From the IMG/VR virus record IMGVR_UViG_2617270976_000011, positions 1 through 9,855 of that record: a DNA stretch of 9,855 bases; one strand, 5' to 3'. Both the position numbers and the translations under genes were made by a program. Source of the stretch: a virus (lineage: Duplodnaviria; Heunggongvirae; Uroviricota; Caudoviricetes). The notes under the pieces are model-generated. The model was not told the origin of the DNA. It saw only the letters and a list, made by a program, of their open reading frames with translations, and did no database searches. This document shows, piece after piece, positions 1 through 9,555 of this stretch; position 1 is the first letter of the stretch, and every line of letters starts with the position of its first letter.

Positions 1-996
1 TTATGGACGCATTATGGACATTCCTGACACCGGGTTAAGAGTCACAGCATCTTGTAAGAAATCCGGTGCAAAGTGTGCGTAGGTCATAGTTTGCTGAATG
101 TTAGAATGACCCAGGATGCGCTGCAATGTGATTATGTTACCTCCATTAATTATAAAATGTGTGGCAAATGTATGCCTCAAAACATGTACTGCTTGTCCGT
201 CAGGTAAATCGGGTTTTACTTCCCTGAGAGCGTTACGCACTTTGTAGTAACTGGCATTAAAAAGCCTGCCTGAATTTTTGGTCTTGATCCTTTTAATCAG
301 GTCCTGCGAAACGGGAATTGTCCTGCGCTTTCCGTTTTTAGTTTTCATAAACGTAACCATCTGGTTAATGATGTGTTCAGCTTTCAAATTAGACACTTCA
401 CTCCAGCGTCCACCAGTAGAAAGGCAGACTAGAGTTGCATTTAACTCATCACCATCAAGCATGGATAACAGCCGCGTAATCTCTTCACTGGACAAAAAAG
501 CCATTTCTGTAACAGCTTCACGTAACCGCTTAACCTCACGGAACGGGTTGTGAGAGTGGTATTCACCGGCGTCAATTAACTTGGTGAACATCCCGCTCAT
601 TATTGCCAGATGCCGATTTACGCTGGCTGGTTTTAGACCATCGTTCATCATTACAACTCGATAATCAGTTATCGTTTTCTTTGTTAACTGGTCAGCTCTG
701 GACACTCCCATTTCTGCAAATTTGGCGATTATTGTCGTCAAACGCCCCCGTTCAATATTTCCACGCTCATGTGATTTTCCGTGATATATCCACCATCTGC
801 CTAACAACTCTGTAAGAGTTCGGCGGTCGGCTGGCTTCTCCAGCCACTCTTTGTTGTGGTAGTTAACCAGCACATGACGTTCGAATGCTTGAGCTTCACC
901 TTTAGTTTTAAATTTCCGCCTGATACGTTTTCCATCTGCACCCTGCGGTCTGACGTCCACTTCATAACGACCATCATCGAGCTTTTTAATAGACAT
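1..996 (-). CDS. int: Phage tyrosine integrase, P2 family, complete (331 aa)
   Basis: Full-length minus-strand ORF. The C-terminal catalytic region has HxxR (HVLRHTFATHF) and a conserved Tyr (MTYAHFAPDF). The N-terminus MSIKKLDDGRYEV matches my recollection of P2 Int (337 aa). A GGAGGG Shine-Dalgarno lies just upstream of the ATG at 994-996. Confidence 0.9.
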   Translation of the reverse strand: MSIKKLDDGRYEVDVRPQGADGKRIRRKFKTKGEAQAFERHVLVNYHNKEWLEKPADRRTLTELLGRWWIYHGKSHERGNIERGRLTTIIAKFAEMGVSRADQLTKKTITDYRVVMMNDGLKPASVNRHLAIMSGMFTKLIDAGEYHSHNPFREVKRLREAVTEMAFLSSEEITRLLSMLDGDELNATLVCLSTGGRWSEVSNLKAEHIINQMVTFMKTKNGKRRTIPVSQDLIKRIKTKNSGRLFNASYYKVRNALREVKPDLPDGQAVHVLRHTFATHFIINGGNIITLQRILGHSNIQQTMTYAHFAPDFLQDAVTLNPVSGMSIMRP

Positions 997-1089
997 AAAG
1001 CCCTCCGATGACGCTGTTTACTTCTACTACTTGAAAATTAATGCAATTTTCTTTCGTACATTTACTGCACACATATGCTGAATAAATCG

Positions 1090-1401
1090 TCAGCCAGTCT
1101 TTTGGTCTGAGTGGTGCAAGGTTGTTGAGTCTTGCCCAATGTGCGCGAGCGCCGGGGCTATTTGTCCGCCAGCGGGATCAGTTTCATCAAACATGAACCA
1201 GTCACGGTACTTGCGAAATCTTTCTGGCTTGAAAAATTTCATACCTGCGTCAAAAGACATCTTTACTTTTCCCTGCTCATATCCAGCATAGGTGTTGTAG
1301 TTAATTCCAGTTAATTCAGCAACTTGCTTCCTTGTCATTCTTTCTGATTCCCGAATAAGTGCGAGTTTCTCTGCTTGAGATGTGATTTGTGTATTTGACA
1401 T
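1090..1401 (-). CDS. C: P2 C-type immunity repressor (about 103 aa)
   Basis: The track ORF (1090-1449) contains an internal Met at 1399-1401 that begins MSNTQITSQ, and its C-terminus GQIAPALAHIGQDSTTLHHSDQKTG matches my recollection of P2 C (99 aa). It lies immediately upstream of int on the same strand, as in P2. The 16 extra N-terminal codons in the track ORF are probably not translated. Confidence 0.8.
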   Translation of the reverse strand: MSNTQITSQAEKLALIRESERMTRKQVAELTGINYNTYAGYEQGKVKMSFDAGMKFFKPERFRKYRDWFMFDETDPAGGQIAPALAHIGQDSTTLHHSDQKTG

Positions 1402-1505
1402 GAATTGTCGTATCTCGTAATTTATGTTGTATGCGACACACCAGAACAACGCAGAGCGGCTTCAAATAGCTCTGGTTGAATGGCACCAAAGTTGAGGATA
1501 TCAAA
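1402..1505. promoter_or_regulatory. Immunity/early switch intergenic region between divergent C and cox starts (expected Pc/Pe promoters and repressor operators)
   Basis: 104-bp AT-rich spacer between the divergent start codons. It contains imperfect direct repeats TGTCGTAT (1406-1413) and TGTTGTAT (1425-1432). P2 C repressor is known to bind direct repeats; the specific sites here are not verified. Confidence 0.35.
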
Positions 1506-2690
1506 ATGAGTATTGGATCAGAAATGAATAACGATGTTGGAGAAAAAGTATCTGATCTCACAAAAAGTAAAAAATGTGACATCAAACTTGCAGCCGCACC
1601 GTCGGATTTGCTCTCGAAAGAGGGTTTTGCTCTTTACATCGGTAAGACGCCTCGCGCTGTTGCTGAAATGGCGAAAGCAGGCAAGTTACCAGCCTTTTAT
1701 ATGACGGACCCATTAAAGCCGGGCGGTCATGCTGAGTTATGGATTAACCGGGGCGGTGCTGCGGGGTATATCGCGAAATACATTTCAAAAAACATCGACG
1801 GCTATGCACTGGATGGTCAGCTCGATAACGACACCGGCAGGCCGCTGAAAGACACTGCCGCGGCTGTTACCGCATGGGCGTCAACGTGGCGCATTCCGCA
1901 ATTTAAAACGGTTGGCCTGCCGACAATGGGGGCTTACCGTGAACTACGCAAATTACCTCGCGGCGTCAGCATTGCTGATGAGTTTGACGAACGCGTCGAG
2001 GCTGCACGCGCTGCCGCAGACAGTGGCGATTTTGCGCTGTATATCAGCGCGCAGGGTGGGGCAAATGTCCCGCGCGATTGTCAGACTGTCAGGGTCGCCC
2101 GTAGTCCGTCGGATGAAGTTAACGAGTACGAGGAAGAAGTCGAGAGAGTGGTCGGCATTTACGCGCCGCATCTCGGCGCGCGTCATATTCATATCACCAG
2201 AACGACGGACTGGCGCATTGTTCCGAAAGTGCCGGTCGTTGAGCCTTTGACTTTAAAAAGCGGCATCGCCGCGCCTCGGAGTCCTGTCAATAACTGTGGA
2301 AAGCTTGCCGACGGTGGCGATCCAGTTATGACACCTACGCCGTCTGAGCATGCCGCAGCGGTGCTAAATCTTGTCGATGATGGGGTTATTGCATGGGATG
2401 ACCCCGAAGTTGTGACGGTGCTCAGGAGTGCATTAAAACACGGCGCGCCGCAGCAAAATCGACAGCAAAGAAGCGATGAGCCATTAAAATCGAATCAGAT
2501 AGCACCATCAGGGCGAATGACAAAAGCCGAGAGGGCTCAGATTCCGCGCATCCGCTTCGAACTGGCGCAGCAGGGTATCACGCCGCAGCGGTGGGAACTT
2601 CAGGCGCTGGCTCGTGGCGGAATAGTGGTTTATGGCGAAAAAAGATTTGTATACCCGATAGCGGACGAGTGGGTGAAGCATGAAGGGTGA
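1506..2690 (+). CDS. In-frame deletion fusion: Cox-like HTH N-terminus (about 80 aa) joined to the C-terminal ~310 aa of rolling-circle replication initiator gpA; probably a non-functional remnant
   Basis: The N-terminal segment FALYIGKTPRAVAEMAKAGKLPAFYMTDPLKPGGHAELWINR resembles P2 Cox. It runs directly into GYIAKYISKNIDGY, the paired-tyrosine (Y-x-x-x-Y) motif of phiX174/P2 A-type initiators. Gene B and the N-terminal ~450 aa of A are absent. A GAGGA Shine-Dalgarno precedes the ATG at 1506; the track ORF starts earlier at 1476. Confidence 0.7.
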   Translation: MSIGSEMNNDVGEKVSDLTKSKKCDIKLAAAPSDLLSKEGFALYIGKTPRAVAEMAKAGKLPAFYMTDPLKPGGHAELWINRGGAAGYIAKYISKNIDGYALDGQLDNDTGRPLKDTAAAVTAWASTWRIPQFKTVGLPTMGAYRELRKLPRGVSIADEFDERVEAARAAADSGDFALYISAQGGANVPRDCQTVRVARSPSDEVNEYEEEVERVVGIYAPHLGARHIHITRTTDWRIVPKVPVVEPLTLKSGIAAPRSPVNNCGKLADGGDPVMTPTPSEHAAAVLNLVDDGVIAWDDPEVVTVLRSALKHGAPQQNRQQRSDEPLKSNQIAPSGRMTKAERAQIPRIRFELAQQGITPQRWELQALARGGIVVYGEKRFVYPIADEWVKHEG

Positions 2691-2753
2691 TTTATATCCA
2701 TCTAAATCATGATGTTATGATGGCCGTGTGAGTTCTTTTCTGATTGGGGCTGC

Positions 2754-2928
2754 GTTCGACGGCTTGAAATGTTGTAAATGCTCATAATCTGGTTTAAAGT
2801 GTTTTTATGCCAACGACTAGGAGCATCTCCAGTCATAAATGTTGGCCTCTACAGGCCTTTATATAGTGTTGCTCTTGTACTGCCTTCTCTTTCGAGAGAA
2901 GGTATGTACAAGAAGTAAAGCCTGCGAA
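2754..2928 (+). ncRNA. Candidate retron msr-msd non-coding RNA (boundaries approximate)
   Basis: Non-coding leader directly upstream of, and co-oriented with, the RT gene. Candidate a1 TTCGACGGCTT (2754-2764) is complementary to candidate a2 AAGCCTGCGAA (2918-2928) at 9 of 11 positions, with a G immediately 3' of a1. A strong hairpin at 2876-2910 sits just 5' of a2, where an msd stem would be. Not confirmed by folding or covariance. Confidence 0.3.
2876..2910 (+). repeat. Inverted-repeat hairpin: 8-bp perfect core CCTTCTCT/AGAGAAGG with a TTCG (UUCG) tetraloop, extendable to about 15 pairs with one G-T wobble and a 1-nt bulge
   Basis: Read directly: 2883-2890 CCTTCTCT, loop 2891-2894 TTCG, 2895-2902 AGAGAAGG; outer arms TGTAC (2876-2880) and GTACA (2906-2910). 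Confidence 0.8.
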
Positions 2929-3016
2929 GGGAGGGTGTCTGGGGTGAGGAAAGACTGAGAGTTAAAGCATTCATCTTAGAATCCATTCAACTCAAAAAAC
3001 AAAAGCTCAGCCAACG

Positions 3017-4006
3017 ATGAAACCCCTTAGTCTCGAAAAAGCCTTCAATATTGCATTCTTCGAAAAAGATTCCTTTCAAAACTTTCTTTCGTTTGAACCA
3101 TTTCAACAAACTAAATTTATAACCTTTGATGAAAGGTTAATTGCTGAGCCCACTTCTAAACTAAAAGAGTATCACAAATTCATAAATGAATTTGTTCTTT
3201 CATACTTGAAAGTAAATAAGGATGTTGTGTTTTCGTATAGAAAAGGAAGCAGCACTTATGATGCAGTAAAACTTCACGCCTGTAGTAAGATATTCTTCAA
3301 TACTGATATTAAAAGCTTTTTCCCATCGATAACTCGTGAATATGCACGATCAGTTTTAGTTGATAACTTATCGAACGTTCCCATTTCCGATTTAAATATA
3401 CACTTGGATAAAATTTTAGATTATATTATTATCGATAATTCGTTGCCTGTAGGGTTCCCGACATCACCAGCTTTCAGCAATGCATGTTTATATGACTTTG
3501 ATGTTGAGATGCAGCAATATTGTATTAACCATGAATATATATTCACACGCTATTCAGATGATATTATTATTTCCTCTGAAAATGATGAGGGCTTTGAGAA
3601 TATTCATTCTGTAGTAAGTGACCTGCTGGGTGAGTTTGGGAAGGGACATTTCAAACTAAACTCAGCAAAAACTAAATTGATTAAAAAAGGCAGTAAGATT
3701 AAGCTGCTGGGGATGGTTATTTTACCGTCTCAGATAGTCTCTGTTGATATTAAAATAAAAAGAAAGCTTGAGCATTTGATTCATTTTTATGTAACGGATA
3801 AAGATAAATTTATAGATTCTATAATAAAAGATCCTAAGGTTAAAACTAGCGGATTGAATGATAGTGAGATCTTGGAAAAGGGCGTTAATACAGTTTCTGG
3901 TCTTTTGAATCATATAAACACAATTGATAAGAGTTATCTCGATAAGCTAAAGAGAAAATACGGAAATACGATTGTCGATATGCTTTTTTACAAGAATGTA
4001 AATTAA
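3017..4006 (+). CDS. Reverse transcriptase, retron-type (329 aa)
   Basis: RT motifs are in canonical order: SSTYDAVKLHA (NAxxH-like box, residues 78-88), DIKSFFPSI (motif A, 97-105), LPVGFPTSPAFSN (QG-P-SP box, 143-155), YSDD catalytic box (179-182, nt 3551-3562), LLGMVI (230-235). Small size, no maturase or endonuclease domain, a non-coding structured leader upstream and an effector gene downstream all fit a retron. AT-rich coding sequence. Confidence 0.85.
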   Translation: MKPLSLEKAFNIAFFEKDSFQNFLSFEPFQQTKFITFDERLIAEPTSKLKEYHKFINEFVLSYLKVNKDVVFSYRKGSSTYDAVKLHACSKIFFNTDIKSFFPSITREYARSVLVDNLSNVPISDLNIHLDKILDYIIIDNSLPVGFPTSPAFSNACLYDFDVEMQQYCINHEYIFTRYSDDIIISSENDEGFENIHSVVSDLLGEFGKGHFKLNSAKTKLIKKGSKIKLLGMVILPSQIVSVDIKIKRKLEHLIHFYVTDKDKFIDSIIKDPKVKTSGLNDSEILEKGVNTVSGLLNHINTIDKSYLDKLKRKYGNTIVDMLFYKNVN

Positions 4007-4007
4007 A

Positions 4008-5360
4008 ATGAAAATAAATATTGAGATCTCGAAAATCCAGCATGTTGAACATATGTCATTTGCTATTGATCTTTCTGAAAATAAACTGACTTGCATTGTA
4101 GGAAAGAACGGTGCTGGAAAGACAACGCTAATCAAAGCAATTAAAAATTTACAATCAGCAGATACATTCATAAAGACATCTTCTAGATATATATTCAATC
4201 CTGACAGTAGTATAGTATATAATATTAATGATCAAGATATAGTATATGTCTATGATGAGAATTTGAAGGTAATAGATACTAAGCAAATAATTCCAGCAGA
4301 TATAAAATCCAATCTTTATGTCGAGTTGCCCATTCCTCATGGAATGAGGTTCAATAACTTCCCAACACTTAGTAAAATTGATACTGAACTTAGAAAAAGT
4401 ATTGCGTTTGAAAGCTATAGCGTTCCCGAGGATTTGATAAATATACTCAATGAGGTATATCAGTCTTCTTCTTACAATAATCTTAAAGCATTTTCTGTAA
4501 AAAATGAAATTTTCTATTTCAGATTGAATGAGAACGGAACATACATAAGGGAGGATTACTTTAGCTCGGGTGAGTATTTTATTTTGAATTTATTTAGAAT
4601 GATTGAGCTCAAAAGAAAATTCATTGTCATAGATGAGATAGATATATCACTAGACTCTTCGGCGCAAGTCCATCTTATAGCAGTGCTAAGGAAATATTGT
4701 CAGAGACACTCGGTGAATATTGTATTCACAACACATTCACTTGCTTTAATGCAAACGCTGAATGATGATGAATTGTACTATATGTGCGAAGGTGATGCTG
4801 GAACTACAATTACAAATCGATCATATAATTATATAAAAAGTACGCTTTTTGGATTTAAAGGATGGGATAAGTACATTCTTACTGAAGATGAAGTTCTGCA
4901 AAATTTCTTAGAATATATAATTAATGCTCCTGGGAATGATTACTTCTACGAATATAAAATAATATATGTTGGTGGAGGAACTAATGTCATTGATTTAATG
5001 CGTCGTAATGAGAGAGAGAGCTTTCTCACGACTCAACAGAATGTGATCTCAGTGTTAGACGGAGATCAATTAGGTCAAAGGCATGCTCGAGGTGAAAATA
5101 TTTTATGCATACCTTTCCAAAGCGTTGAGAAGGATTTCTATCAAGCATACGGCCAAGATGAATCGATCCCGAGAGTTACAACTAGAGGTAACGATAAACT
5201 TGATAAGCAAGTTTATCGAGGGGTAGTGAAAACCTATGACAACGGCTGGGATGAAACTAGGATTTTTGAATACCTTGAGAGGTTAAAGCCTGATGAATGT
5301 GAGGCTTTCAGGCAAAAAATTAGAGCATTTCTCCAAAGAAATATTTCGGCAGAGGGTTGA
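4008..5360 (+). CDS. OLD-family ABC-type ATPase with C-terminal TOPRIM-like nuclease domain (450 aa); probable retron effector
   Basis: Walker A GKNGAGKTT (residues 32-40, nt 4101-4127), ABC-signature-like FSSGE (185-189), Walker B FIVIDEID (205-212), H-loop TTHS (241-244). The C-terminal half has TOPRIM-like acidic residues: ILTEDEV (Glu ~293) and VLDGDQ (DxD, 351-353). The ATG lies 1 nt after the RT stop (TAA 4004-4006, ATG 4008-4010). Confidence 0.8.
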   Translation: MKINIEISKIQHVEHMSFAIDLSENKLTCIVGKNGAGKTTLIKAIKNLQSADTFIKTSSRYIFNPDSSIVYNINDQDIVYVYDENLKVIDTKQIIPADIKSNLYVELPIPHGMRFNNFPTLSKIDTELRKSIAFESYSVPEDLINILNEVYQSSSYNNLKAFSVKNEIFYFRLNENGTYIREDYFSSGEYFILNLFRMIELKRKFIVIDEIDISLDSSAQVHLIAVLRKYCQRHSVNIVFTTHSLALMQTLNDDELYYMCEGDAGTTITNRSYNYIKSTLFGFKGWDKYILTEDEVLQNFLEYIINAPGNDYFYEYKIIYVGGGTNVIDLMRRNERESFLTTQQNVISVLDGDQLGQRHARGENILCIPFQSVEKDFYQAYGQDESIPRVTTRGNDKLDKQVYRGVVKTYDNGWDETRIFEYLERLKPDECEAFRQKIRAFLQRNISAEG

Positions 5361-5502
5361 ATATAAGCTTCGGGATCTCATGCCTCTCTATCTGCATGAA
5401 ATTGCATTTGATAATTCCTATTTTTCTCGTGAACTGTGTCACGTTAGGCGCAGCTCAGGGCTCATAATGCATCTGCATTAAAACCGCCCCACGAAGCGGG
5501 CG

Positions 5503-5521
5503 GGCGAGGCGGGGAAAGCAC
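5503..5521. other. Candidate P2-type cos cohesive-end sequence GGCGAGGCGGGGAAAGCAC
   Basis: The 19-mer matches my recollection of the P2 19-nt cohesive end. It sits in a GC-rich non-coding stretch between the cargo cassette and head/tail remnants, which is where cos lies in a P2 prophage (between old and Q). Identification is from memory, not a search. Confidence 0.5.
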
Positions 5522-5663
5522 TGCGCGCTGGCGGTGGTGCTGATTTTATTTTTTCAGCGTCTGAGCGCGTCGTGAAGGCGTTTACTTGGCCTGCTGGGGC
5601 GTTGGTGTGTCTGCGGGATTTTTTGTGCGGTGATGAGCGTGTGAGGGCGTGATGACAGGGTAT

Positions 5664-5685
5664 AAAAAAGCCGCCCGCAGGCGGC
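5664..5685 (-). terminator. Intrinsic terminator-like hairpin for leftward transcription (GCCGCC-TGCG-GGCGGC followed by TTTTTT on the minus strand)
   Basis: Plus strand shows AAAAAA (5664-5669), GCCGCC (5670-5675), CGCA loop, GGCGGC (5680-5685). This lies immediately downstream of the minus-strand ORF stop at 5691-5693. Confidence 0.55.
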
Positions 5686-5690
5686 GATGT

Positions 5691-6209
5691 TCAGCCGTTG
5701 TCAGTGTCCAGTGAGTAGTTTTTAAAGCGGATGACCTCCTGACCGAGCCAGCCGTTTATCTCGCGGATCCTGTCCTGTAGCGGGATAAGCTCATTGCGGA
5801 CAAAGACCTTTGCCACTTTCTCAATATCACCCAGCGACCCGACGTTCTCCGGCTTGCCTCCCATCAACTGAAAGGGGATGCGGTGCGCGTCCAGCAGGTC
5901 AGCGGCGCTGGCTTTTTTGATATTAAAAAAATCGTCCTTCGTTGCGACTTCACTGAGCGGGATAATTTTAATGCCGTCGGCTTTCCCCTGCGGGGCATAG
6001 AGAAACAGATTTTTAAAGTTGTTGCGGCCTTTCGACTTGACCATGTTTTCGCGAATACGGGATGCGTGACCGTTCAGCTCGCGCAGTGATTTTTGTGTTT
6101 CCCGGATATCCCCCGACAGCGACCTGCTCGCTGTACGGATGGATTTAAACGGGCGGGATGCCTGGTCAACAGCCCTGAGCAATACCTGTAATTTTACATT
6201 GTTACTCAT
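5691..6209 (-). CDS. Chimeric ORF (172 aa): N-terminal ~60 aa consistent with the start of tape-measure gene T, fused to a ~110-aa portal-like (gpQ-like) C-terminal segment
   Basis: Its ATG (6207-6209) overlaps the stop of the upstream E' frame (TAA 6203-6205) as ATGAGTAA, the position expected for the start of T after E/E'. The C-terminal part (AHRIPFQLMGG ... NELIPLQDRIREINGWL) resembles a conserved C-terminal portal motif. Its own frame is closed by a TGA 18 codons upstream of the ATG. Confidence 0.45.
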   Translation of the reverse strand: MSNNVKLQVLLRAVDQASRPFKSIRTASRSLSGDIRETQKSLRELNGHASRIRENMVKSKGRNNFKNLFLYAPQGKADGIKIIPLSEVATKDDFFNIKKASAADLLDAHRIPFQLMGGKPENVGSLGDIEKVAKVFVRNELIPLQDRIREINGWLGQEVIRFKNYSLDTDNG

Positions 6210-6491
6210 TCGTGTTTCCGCTTCGCCGGAGCGCCTTTTCGCGCCATGTGATGAGTTCGGTCAGGCTCATGGGATACAGTTCTGATGGCGGCCAGTGAAA
6301 TATCACAGCCACATCCGCCATCAGGTCATCGACCGAGAGATTTTTCGGAAACGTCACTGCACCGAGTTCGGCGACAAAAAACCGACCACCTTACCGGCCA
6401 GCGCCACAAGGTCAGGCAGTTCCAGCGCGGCGACTTCCTGCTCGGTCAGAACAGGTAAAGCTGCTGATAGCGACCGGAGGCCGTGGATTTT
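6203..6491 (-). pseudogene. 5'-truncated remnant of tail assembly chaperone genes E and E+E' (programmed -1 frameshift pair)
   Basis: Minus-strand frame 0 reads ...LTEQEVAALELPDLVALAGKVVGFLSPNSVQ-stop, with no start codon and an in-frame stop at 6492-6494. The -1 frame continues from the slippery site as FFVAELGAVTFPKNLSVDDLMADVAVIFHWPPSELYPMSLTELITWREKALRRSGNTNE-stop. Seven codons after the slip in frame 0 and a 58-codon extension fit the 91-aa and 142-aa sizes I recall for P2 E and E+E'. Confidence 0.5.
6375..6381 (-). other. -1 programmed ribosomal frameshift slippery heptamer T_TTT_TTG
   Basis: Plus strand is CAAAAAA at 6375-6381, i.e. TTTTTTG on the minus strand, positioned in frame as X_XXY_YYZ seven codons before the frame-0 stop. 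I recall the same heptamer as the P2 E/E' frameshift site. Confidence 0.5.
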
Positions 6492-6526
6492 TCACCGCGA
6501 CGGTTAAACACCTTCGCCGGTCGACC

Positions 6527-9256
6527 ATGTGCGAACGGGTGGTCACTGTAGTCGGTGAAGATTTCCGGCTTTCCCAGCAGGATTTCAGCCGCTTTGTGCT
6601 GGATTTTCTGGTGTTCGGTAATGCGTTTCTGGAAAAGCGTTACAGCACCACCGGTAAGGTCATCAGACTGGAAACCTCACCGGCAAAATATACCCGCCGT
6701 GGTGTGGAGGAGGATGTTTACTGGTGGGTGCCGTCCTTCAACGAGCCGACAGCCTTCGCGCCCGGCTCCGTGTTTCACCTGCTGGAGCCGGATATTAATC
6801 AGGAGCTGTACGGCCTGCCGGAATATCTCAGCGCCCTTAACTCTGCCTGGCTGAATGAGTCAGCCACGCTGTTCCGCCGCAAGTATTACGAAAACGGCGC
6901 ACATGCCGGATACATCATGTACGTCACTGATGCCGTGCAGGATCGCAACGATATCGAAATGCTTGAGGGATTCCGCAAGACCAGTGCACAGCTTGCCGTG
7001 ACTGGTCATGCACTTGAAAAGGCTCGGCAGGAAGCCGAAGCCCTTGCCACACAGTTTAAAAACACCGAACGTCCGACCCGTGCTCAGGCGAAAGTGCTGG
7101 AATCCGCAAAGCGTGCGGCGGAGGACTTACAGGCGAAATATAACCGCCTGACGGATTCCGTTAAACGCCAGCAGCGGGAACTGGCCGCTGTGGGAATTAA
7201 TACCCGCAATCTTGCACATGATGAGCAGGGACTGAAAAACCGTATCAGTGAAACCACCGCACAGCTTAACCGTCAGCGTGATGCGCTGGCGCGTGTCAGT
7301 GCGCAACAGGCAAAACTTAACGCAGTCAAACAGCGTTATCAGGCCGGAAAGGAACTGGCCGGAAATATGGCCTCAGTAGGCGCTGCCGGTGTGGGGATTG
7401 CGGCGGCGGGAACGATGGCCGGAGTTAAATTGCTGATGCCCGGTTATGAGTTTGCGCAGAAAAACTCAGAATTGCAGGCCGTGCTCGGAGTGGCAAAAGA
7501 CTCCGCCGAAATGACCGCACTCCGCAAGCAGGCGCGCCAGCTCGGCGACAATACCGCAGCCTCGGCAGATGATGCAGCCGGTGCACAGATAATCATTGCG
7601 AAAGCGGGTGGAGATGCTGCGGCTATTCAGGCAGCAACGCCGGTCACACTGAATATGGCACTGGCAAACCAGCGGTCGATGGAAGAAAACGCGCAATTGT
7701 TGCTGGGGACTAAGGCATCCTTTCAACTGTCAAATGATGATGTCAGCCATGTGGGCGACGTGTTGTCGGCAACGATGAATAAGTCGGCGGCTGATTTTCA
7801 GGGACTCAGTGATGCACTGACTTACCTCGGCCCGGTTGCGAGGACGGCAGGTGTAAGTATTGAGCAGGCAGCGGCCATGACCGGTGTGCTGCATGACAAT
7901 AACATCAGGGGGTCAATGGCGGGTACGGGTAGCAGTGCCGTTGTCACCCGATTACAGGCACCGACTGGAAAAGCATGGGATGCACTCAAAGAGCTTGGCG
8001 TTAAAACCTCGGACAAAAAGGGAAATATGCGTCCGTTGTTCACCATTCTGAAAGAGATTCAGGCCAGCTTTGATAAGCATAAGCTGGGAACGTCTCAGAA
8101 GGGGGAATACCTTAAAACCATTTTTGGTGAGGAAGCCCTGAAATCAGCGAACGTTTTACTGGCAGCGGCAGCAAGCGGAAAACTGGATACGCTGACCGCC
8201 ACGCTGAAAGCCTCGGACGGTAAAACGGAAGAGCTGGTTAAAATCATGCAGGATAACCTCGGCGGTGACTTTAAGGAGTTTCAGTCCGCTTATGAGGCGG
8301 TGGGGACTGACCTGTTTGACCAGCAGGAAGGCGCACTGCGTAAGCTCACTCAGACGGCCACAAAGTATGTGTTAAAACTCGACGGCTGGATCCAGAAAAA
8401 CAAATCACTGGCGTCAACCATCGGCCTCATTGTCGGTGGCGCGCTGGCGCTTATTGGCATCATCGGTGCCATTGGTCTTGTCGCCTGGCCGGTTATCACC
8501 GGCATCAATGCCATTATCGCGGCAGCAGGCGCAATGGGGGCAATCTTCACGACGGTTAGCAGTGCTGTTATGACGGCCATCGGGGCGATTAGCTGGCCGG
8601 TTGTGGCCGTGGTGGCCGCCATTGTCGCCGGGGCGTTGCTTATCCGTAAATACTGGGAGCCTGTCAGCGCATTCTTTGGCGGTGTGGTGGAAGGGCTGAA
8701 AGCGGCATTTGCGCCGGTGGGGGAACTGTTCACGCCACTGAAGCCGGTGTTTGACTGGCTGGGTGAAAAGTTACAGGCCGTGTGGCAGTGGTTTAAAAAC
8801 CTGATTGCCCCGGTCAAAGCCACCCAGGACACCCTGAACCGTTGCCGTGACACGGGCGTTATGTTCGGGCAGGCACTGGCTGACGCGCTGATGCTGCCGC
8901 TTAATGCGTTCAACAAACTGCGCAGCGGTATTGACTGGGTACTGGAAAAACTCGGTGTTATCAACAAAGAGTCAGACACACTTGACCAGACCGCCGCAAG
9001 GACTCATGCCGCCACGTATGGCACCGGTGGTTATATTCCGGCGACCAGCTCTTATGCTGGCTATCAGGCTTATCAGCCGGTCACGGCACCGGCTGGCCGC
9101 TCTTATGTGGACCAGAGTAAAAACGAATATCACATCAACCTGACGGGCGGTACTGCGCCGGGGACACAGCTCGACCGCCAGTTACAGGATGCGCTCGAAA
9201 AATACGAGCGGGATAAACGTGCGCGCGCCCGTGCCAGCATGATGCATGACGGTTAA
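6527..9256 (+). CDS. Chimeric long ORF (909 aa): N-terminal ~150-aa portal-like segment fused in frame to ~745 aa of phage tail tape-measure protein (gpT-like)
   Basis: From about residue 160 onward the protein has a long coiled-coil region, a conserved tape-measure core (ASFQLSNDDVSHVGDVLSATMNKSAADFQGLSDALTYLGPVARTAGVSIEQAAAMTGVLHDNN) and Gly/Ala/Ile-rich hydrophobic segments. The first ~150 residues (e.g. FRRKYYENGAHAGYIMYVTDAVQDRNDIEMLEG) are unlike tape measure and look portal-like. No Shine-Dalgarno precedes the ATG, and the frame is open back to 6299 without a start. Confidence 0.75.
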   Translation: MCERVVTVVGEDFRLSQQDFSRFVLDFLVFGNAFLEKRYSTTGKVIRLETSPAKYTRRGVEEDVYWWVPSFNEPTAFAPGSVFHLLEPDINQELYGLPEYLSALNSAWLNESATLFRRKYYENGAHAGYIMYVTDAVQDRNDIEMLEGFRKTSAQLAVTGHALEKARQEAEALATQFKNTERPTRAQAKVLESAKRAAEDLQAKYNRLTDSVKRQQRELAAVGINTRNLAHDEQGLKNRISETTAQLNRQRDALARVSAQQAKLNAVKQRYQAGKELAGNMASVGAAGVGIAAAGTMAGVKLLMPGYEFAQKNSELQAVLGVAKDSAEMTALRKQARQLGDNTAASADDAAGAQIIIAKAGGDAAAIQAATPVTLNMALANQRSMEENAQLLLGTKASFQLSNDDVSHVGDVLSATMNKSAADFQGLSDALTYLGPVARTAGVSIEQAAAMTGVLHDNNIRGSMAGTGSSAVVTRLQAPTGKAWDALKELGVKTSDKKGNMRPLFTILKEIQASFDKHKLGTSQKGEYLKTIFGEEALKSANVLLAAAASGKLDTLTATLKASDGKTEELVKIMQDNLGGDFKEFQSAYEAVGTDLFDQQEGALRKLTQTATKYVLKLDGWIQKNKSLASTIGLIVGGALALIGIIGAIGLVAWPVITGINAIIAAAGAMGAIFTTVSSAVMTAIGAISWPVVAVVAAIVAGALLIRKYWEPVSAFFGGVVEGLKAAFAPVGELFTPLKPVFDWLGEKLQAVWQWFKNLIAPVKATQDTLNRCRDTGVMFGQALADALMLPLNAFNKLRSGIDWVLEKLGVINKESDTLDQTAARTHAATYGTGGYIPATSSYAGYQAYQPVTAPAGRSYVDQSKNEYHINLTGGTAPGTQLDRQLQDALEKYERDKRARARASMMHDG

Positions 9257-9270
9257 GGAGGTGACGAAAA

Positions 9271-9555
9271 ATGATGCTCGCGTTAGGTATGTTTGTTTTT
9301 ATGCGCCAGACGCTGCCACACCAGACCATGCAGCGTGAATCAGATTATCGCTGGCCGTCAAATTCCCGTACCGGTCGTGCAGATATTTACACGGAAACAC
9401 CGGTCAGAGTGTCAGGCTTTAAGCGCGTCATAGACGAGCAGGACTGGACAATCACTAAGGTGACACATTTTCTGAATAATAGCGGCTTCACGACGTCCTT
9501 AGAGCTTGAGGTCAGGCTTTCTGATGTGGAGTACGAAACAGAAGATTATGAGTGA
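9271..9555 (+). CDS. Truncated tail protein remnant (94 aa): gpU-like N-terminus, possibly fused to a gpD-like C-terminus
   Basis: A strong AAGGAGGTGA Shine-Dalgarno (9255-9264) precedes the ATG, 15 nt after the T stop, which is where U sits in the P2 FETUD operon. At 94 aa it is far shorter than U (about 159 aa) or D (about 387 aa), so an internal deletion is likely. The U/D fusion point is inferred, not demonstrated. Confidence 0.45.
   Translation: MMLALGMFVFMRQTLPHQTMQRESDYRWPSNSRTGRADIYTETPVRVSGFKRVIDEQDWTITKVTHFLNNSGFTTSLELEVRLSDVEYETEDYE

Follow-up and report, generated by a model that had tools for sequence, protein, structure and literature searches.

A P2-type cos site beside a type I-B retron in a defective prophage remnant between Escherichia coli pflA and pflB

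In P2-type phages, the gpA-gpQ locus beside cos is a defence hotspot with retrons among its contents, and 1,650 gene arrangements have been described in 18,150 loci (Rousset et al. 2022, PMC9122126). In P2 itself (NC_001895), orf91, tin, and old fill the slot that separates gene A from cos, and the cos sequence is annotated at both genome ends, as 'cosL; left cohesive end' (1-19) and 'cosR; right cohesive end' (33575-33593). The corresponding annotation of 186 (NC_001317) reads 'top strand cut at 5' end and bottom strand cut at 3' end'. In its statement on cos, which cites Ziermann & Calendar 1990, PMC9594776 gives a 55-bp site as the sole homology between P2 and P4. Defective P2-like elements, in which mobility and structural genes are deleted or pseudogenised, keep intact defence genes near-identical to those of an intact element, and whether such elements still swap defences has been left open (PMC13586616, NAR 2026).

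Here we analyse a 9,855-nucleotide stretch of viral DNA (the window). The reading in which we place high confidence is that it holds a P2-type cos site with a retron at the right end of the phage map, located in a defective remnant that would be unable to use cos by itself. Sequence identity, position, homology on both flanks, cargo identity, and loss of packaging genes are directly observed and carry this reading.

The 19-mer GGCGAGGCGGGGAAAGCAC lies at 5503-5521 on the + strand in a single copy, and no second copy is present elsewhere in the window when up to two mismatches are allowed. It is identical to the annotated cosL and cosR of P2, as a preliminary description of this DNA had proposed, and to the first 19 nt of P4 (NC_001609); the 186 counterpart, GGCGTGGCGGGGAAAGCAT, differs at two positions. 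The 19-mer is embedded in a 55-bp core common to P2 and P4 (5474-5528), which reads TGCATTAAAACCGCCCCACGAAGCGGGCGG, GCGAGGCGGGGAAAGCAC, and TGCGCGC in succession: 29 bp preceding the cut, the 19-nt overhang itself, and 7 bp following it. The core block begins with TGCATTAAAA 29 bp left of the cut and runs to GCGCGC, 7 bp past the overhang, and its length agrees with the '55 bp long cos site' given in the cos statement of PMC9594776.

Aligned with three E. coli prophages and with the joined genome ends of P2, P4, and 186, the window shows a core match of 53/55 to P2, 52/55 to P4, and 48/55 to 186, and of 55/55 to the prophages of both E. coli AHM21C2872I and E. coli NCTC9100. Both differences from P2 are substitutions in the loop of a dyad (5491-5492), at positions that also distinguish P2 from P4, and the 29-bp right-end segment is common to P2 and the window. 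The core architecture is likewise alike in 186 and P4. In 186, a terminator and the portal gene also lie to the right of cos, and P4 has nothing beyond the core in common with the window. The first base of LR595873 and LR595887, and of their RefSeq copies NC_049387 and NC_049390, aligns to window position 5503, and 2157 of 5426 complete E. coli genomes contain a match to window 5440-5700.

The window thus presents the 19-mer, the 55-bp core, and the position between a gene-A-downstream accessory locus and the terminator and portal 3' end by which a P2-family cos is recognised. Its sequence confirms 5474-5528 as an intact P2-type cos site at which cleavage is predicted. From the P2 and 186 annotations, the top-strand nick is predicted at 5502^5503 and the bottom-strand nick at 5521^5522.

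The homology extends well to the right of the core. Comparison of window 5300-6300 with the P2 ends joined as a circular junction reveals a match that begins 29 bp left of the 19-mer and covers 5474-6055 at 95% identity (552/582, over the tested part). Together with the 186 core match given above, this is the comparison with the P2 and 186 genome ends that the preliminary description had proposed as a check. On the whole-P2 map, window 5474-5521 corresponds to P2 33546-33593, the right end, and window 5503-6055 (553 bp) corresponds to P2 1-551 at 95% identity, encompassing cos, a spacer, the terminator tQ, and the 3' part of Q. The segment is GC-rich (59.5% at 5500-5699 versus 30-35% in the cargo to the left), with T-runs at 5545-5556 and 5620-5626 and dyads at 5484-5489/5498-5503, 5519-5529/5564-5574, 5523-5528, and 5670-5675/5680-5685, in keeping with the GC-rich stretch with T-runs and dyads noted in the preliminary description.

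The 135-bp spacer between cos and tQ (5529-5663) shows blastn homology to P2 27-159, the non-coding left end of P2; it is partly conserved in 186 and absent from P4. The leftward terminator previously noted at 5664-5685 proves to be P2 tQ, the intrinsic terminator of the leftward P-Q late operon: it lies on the - strand and aligns base for base with P2 160-181, annotated as 'tQ; putative rho-independent terminator for P operon'. Its stem (minus strand 5685-5670) comprises six G-C pairs and a loop of four, followed by TTTTTT, and folds at -14.4 kcal/mol (z = -2.1). Beyond tQ lies Q', the 3' part of the portal gene (5691-6055, - strand; ~121 C-terminal codons), which is recognised by the 95% blastn match to P2 1-551 and by a weak Pfam Phage_portal match, with the Q stop codon at 5691. 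The succession of spacer, tQ, and Q stop is that of the P2 left end.

Two further structures lie around the cut. The dyad CCGCCC-N8-GGGCGG (5484-5503) abuts the top-strand cut and, on the minus strand, is followed by TTTT in a terminator-like arrangement. It is conserved in P2 and P4 and not cleanly in 186. We considered it as a structured element or terminator but assign it no role, as its fold is no better than that of shuffled sequences (z = -0.5) and it is not clean in 186. A + strand hairpin with a T-rich tail (5525-5540), a possible terminator of the rightward retron operon, is weak, with three G-C pairs, and is also present in P2, where no rightward cargo precedes it.

On the left side of cos, P2-type homology gives way at 5465-5474, according to the relative used for comparison, to a low-GC cargo island without P2 homology (about 2673-5473, + strand), with a GC content of 28-43% versus ~55% in its flanks. 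On the far side of this island, gene A homology reaches 2672 and the gene stops at 2690; this 3' part of the replication gene (A', 1744-2690, + strand) forms the conserved left border of the hotspot. With P2 homology starting again at 5465-5474, the cargo has a defined right boundary, which the preliminary description had regarded as undefined should the cos match prove wrong. These data support cos as the feature that fixes the right border of the cargo, at 5465-5473.

The island carries a type I-B retron, composed of a reverse transcriptase (RT; 3017-4006, + strand; PADLOC RT_I-B, 6.5e-110) and an ATPase-Toprim effector (4008-5360, + strand; PADLOC ATPase-Toprim_I-B, 1.6e-179). Upstream of the RT, an msd-like hairpin (2873-2913, within a wider region of about 2700-3016) forms a long, interrupted stem, TCTTGTAC..CCTTCTCT-TTCG-AGAGAAGG..GTACAAGA, and its placement is that expected for a retron msd. 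An Rfam scan of the whole window at gathering thresholds returned no match, placing the retron ncRNA outside the curated families. In PDB sequence searches, the effector matched nothing below 1e-5 and the RT had a sole match, a distant solved 'Retron' RT (2.9e-22); these searches rule out identity with the structurally solved Retron-Eco8. An INPHARED search with the cargo matched only ~64 bp at the cos-core end of the query and returned no sequenced phage with the retron.

Bounded by gene A and cos, the type I-B retron is supported as the occupant of the P2 old/tin slot, at the right end of the P2-type map, where the preliminary description had placed it on the condition that the cos match was correct. 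It lies within ~2.9 kb of the cut and is transcribed towards cos, whereas P2 old and tin are transcribed away from it. The cargo has the properties of the P2 gpA-gpQ hotspot: it is variable, compositionally distinct, and a recognised defence system. Two other remnants at pflA/pflB hold different cargos, with ABC-three-component genes in the hotspot slot of NCTC9100 and a PDC-M29-like ATPase pair as the hotspot cargo of E. coli E24377A. Cargo between genes A and Q, beside cos and variable in content, is the arrangement described in PMC9122126, from which the window shows no substantive difference; it is one more instance of an already known, cos-proximal defence hotspot.

The phage around this hotspot is, unlike P2, defective, a context absent from the preliminary description. 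The window is found base for base in the draft assembly GCA_000704325.1 and in the Logan assembly of SRR1186598. Both assemblies place it immediately between pflA and pflB, with chromosomal flanks 99-99.9% identical to E. coli, so the whole element measures ~9.9 kb and no packaging genes lie outside it. It spans int to ogr, with an intact int ORF and with int and C divergent from P2 (66-70% identity). On the whole-P2 map, P2 948-7122 and 7255-19609 have no matching segment in the window; hence it lacks the 5' portion of Q, both terminase genes (P for the large and M for the small subunit), O, N, L, R, S, the majority of the lysis genes, and the genes for baseplate, fibre, sheath, and tube. Of the genes that remain, Q, U, D, cox, and A occur in truncated or fused form. 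A functional (inducible) P2-like prophage would encode the terminase subunits, portal, capsid, and scaffold together with complete tail and lysis modules; the window lacks this set and is a 9.9-kb defective, rearranged P2-type remnant between E. coli pflA and pflB.

At the left of the element, an ORF at 1506-2690 (+ strand) fuses Cox(1-80) in frame to the last 315 codons of A, with a TTAA microhomology at the junction (1744-1747). The truncated A retains the P2 ori nick region, as window 2248-2305 is identical to P2 29862-29919 (58/58), which contains the P2 nick at 29892. An independent in-frame cox::A fusion is present in NCTC9100 (4006-5787); its cox breakpoint is 8 bp from that of the window, and its A breakpoint lies 607 bp further upstream.

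To the right of cos, a 911-bp block (6054-6964) forms an inversion when compared with the P2 order and with the collinear E24377A remnant. Its parts correspond to P2 20005-19610 (E' and the 5' part of T), 7254-7123 (a K fragment), and 947-550 (internal Q). The reading frame is maintained across the two inversion junctions, which are present in two assemblies and create two chimeric ORFs: a 172-aa T(1-~52)::Q(C-terminal ~121 aa) chimera (5691-6209, - strand) and a 909-aa chimera of internal Q and T(52-end) (6527-9256, + strand). The inverted block is followed by T from P2 20004 onward, by the beginning of U abutting the end of D, and by ogr. At this deletion junction (9369-9375), the U start (P2 to 22416) meets the D 3' end (P2 from 23768), and a 94-aa U' ORF is found at 9271-9555. 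The Q'/T' inversion junction was not found in an exact-match scan of genome contigs with one genome per species, and the window junctions were not found in complete RefSeq E. coli genomes. The window resembles the defective P2-like elements of PMC13586616 in its deleted or pseudogenised mobility and structural genes and its near-identical defence genes, and differs from them in an architecture of its own: the cox::A' fusion, the 911-bp inversion with two T/Q chimeras, and the U'/D' junction.

Candidate attL/attR cores, AATGCGACCAATAACTGAC and AATGTCACCAATAACTGAC, are identical at 17 of 19 positions (8387-8405 and 18457-18475 of the GCA_000704325.1 locus) and flank the window at P2-like distances from int and ogr. 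The left candidate lies inside the annotated 5' end of pflA, which suggests that the phage supplies a replacement pflA start.

An intact relative is present in E. coli AHM21C2872I, which carries a full-length prophage of ~31.5 kb at the pflA/pflB site, running from int to ogrK with all P2 modules annotated. This prophage shares the retron and cos of the window and is 99.9% identical over window 1-6055; the defence genes differ by 3 mismatches in 4312 bp, with equal ORF lengths. Beyond 6055, identity drops to 90-98%, and the two Q pieces diverge unequally from the intact prophage (at most one mismatch in 553 bp versus 10 in 398 bp). This unequal divergence, together with the identity drop, indicates a mosaic of two P2-type lineages, which meet at the inversion junction or close to it.

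In an intact P2-type phage, the terminase, composed of small (gpM) and large (gpP) subunits, would recognise the core on replicated circular DNA and introduce the staggered nicks at 5502^5503 and 5521^5522, producing 19-nt 5' cohesive ends. In the virion DNA, base 5503 would form the left end, with tQ and the portal gene Q next to it, and the DNA to the left of this base would become the right end, carrying the type I-B retron instead of P2 old and tin. The 'phage genome ends' of the preliminary description hold in this sense for intact relatives such as the AHM21C2872I prophage, but not for the remnant, which is devoid of terminase, capsid, and an intact portal. As no terminase is encoded by the remnant, its cos would not function in cis. 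Most likely, this cos is a young relic, usable only through a co-resident or superinfecting P2-type helper. Because the surrounding prophage is dead, the retron is effectively a chromosomal defence gene of its host strain. The gain is one of annotation: the right border of the cargo, the placement of the retron in a known cos-proximal hotspot, and the recognition of the element as a dead prophage. The understanding of P2 packaging and of the defence hotspot is unchanged.

Of the other readings, the one that survives best is an element still served by a helper, in which the terminase and capsids of a P2-type phage would package the remnant or adjacent DNA, or the A' and cos/Q' arms would recombine the retron into incoming phages. 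The intact cos core and int ORF, the candidate att cores on both sides, and the fully conserved ori nick region are consistent with such use, as are the different cargos found in one slot in remnants with near-identical chromosomal flanks. Precedents exist in the packaging of plasmids bearing the P4 cos in P2 lysogens upon P4 infection (PMC2231350) and in the transduction of cos-bearing cosmids by P2 (PMC9594776), and the defence swapping left open in PMC13586616 would be of this kind. If true, the defective prophage would be a retron 'hitcher' that still exports or swaps its defence cassette via P2-type phage.

We nevertheless consider this unlikely. With Cox truncated and fused and A lacking its N-terminal part, excision and replication would require functions in trans. 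The P2 A protein acts mainly in cis, and P2 terminase prefers circular monomeric substrates, which together argue against efficient helper packaging of a chromosomal, replication-defective remnant. The length of 9.9 kb is far from the 33.6 kb of the P2 genome, and no capsid-size factor is encoded. The abrupt drop at 6055, from 99.9% to 90-98% identity, does record past recombination, but it does not imply ongoing mobility. Nor does the element show conservation beyond that of a recently deleted prophage: given the 99.9% identity of the cos side to an intact prophage, a recent deletion derivative would be expected to have a perfect core in any case, and the core is no evidence of selection or current use.

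Far less probable is a cos belonging to an active, inducible P2-type prophage and used in cis to generate virion ends. The element has a perfect core, int, C, the ori nick region, and a candidate att core on each side, as such a prophage would, but the int-ogr window is directly flanked by pflA and pflB and has no genes for terminase, capsid, scaffold, lysis, baseplate, fibre, sheath, or tube, and its Q, U, D, cox, and A occur in truncated or fused form. A cos derived from a P4-like satellite rather than a P2-like phage is more improbable still. The 55-bp core is common to P4 (52/55), which likewise has a defence hotspot beside its cos (PMC9122126); similarity to P4 is nonetheless limited to the core, the genes of the window are P2-type, both flanks are P2-type (the gene A 3' end on the left; the 135-bp spacer, tQ, and Q on the right), and psu, sid, delta, and alpha, which together with a P4-type int would identify such a satellite, are absent from the window. 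A chance occurrence of the 19-mer in GC-rich DNA has a negligible probability, as none of 200 dinucleotide-preserving shuffles contained a match to GGCGAGGCGGGGAAAGCAC with up to two mismatches allowed and the surrounding 580 bp are 95% identical to P2.

The relation of cargo to cos takes a different form in the E24377A remnant at pflA/pflB (9337-11350). There, the cos core is a P4-like CACCGCGCG variant, and P2 homology stops right after it. A 2-kb cargo occupies the position to the right of cos, between cos and Q', and encodes a 433-aa ATPase matching PDC-M29A and AriA together with a 145-aa PDC-M29B-like protein. Cargo of the gpA-gpQ hotspot may therefore lie on either side of the cut.
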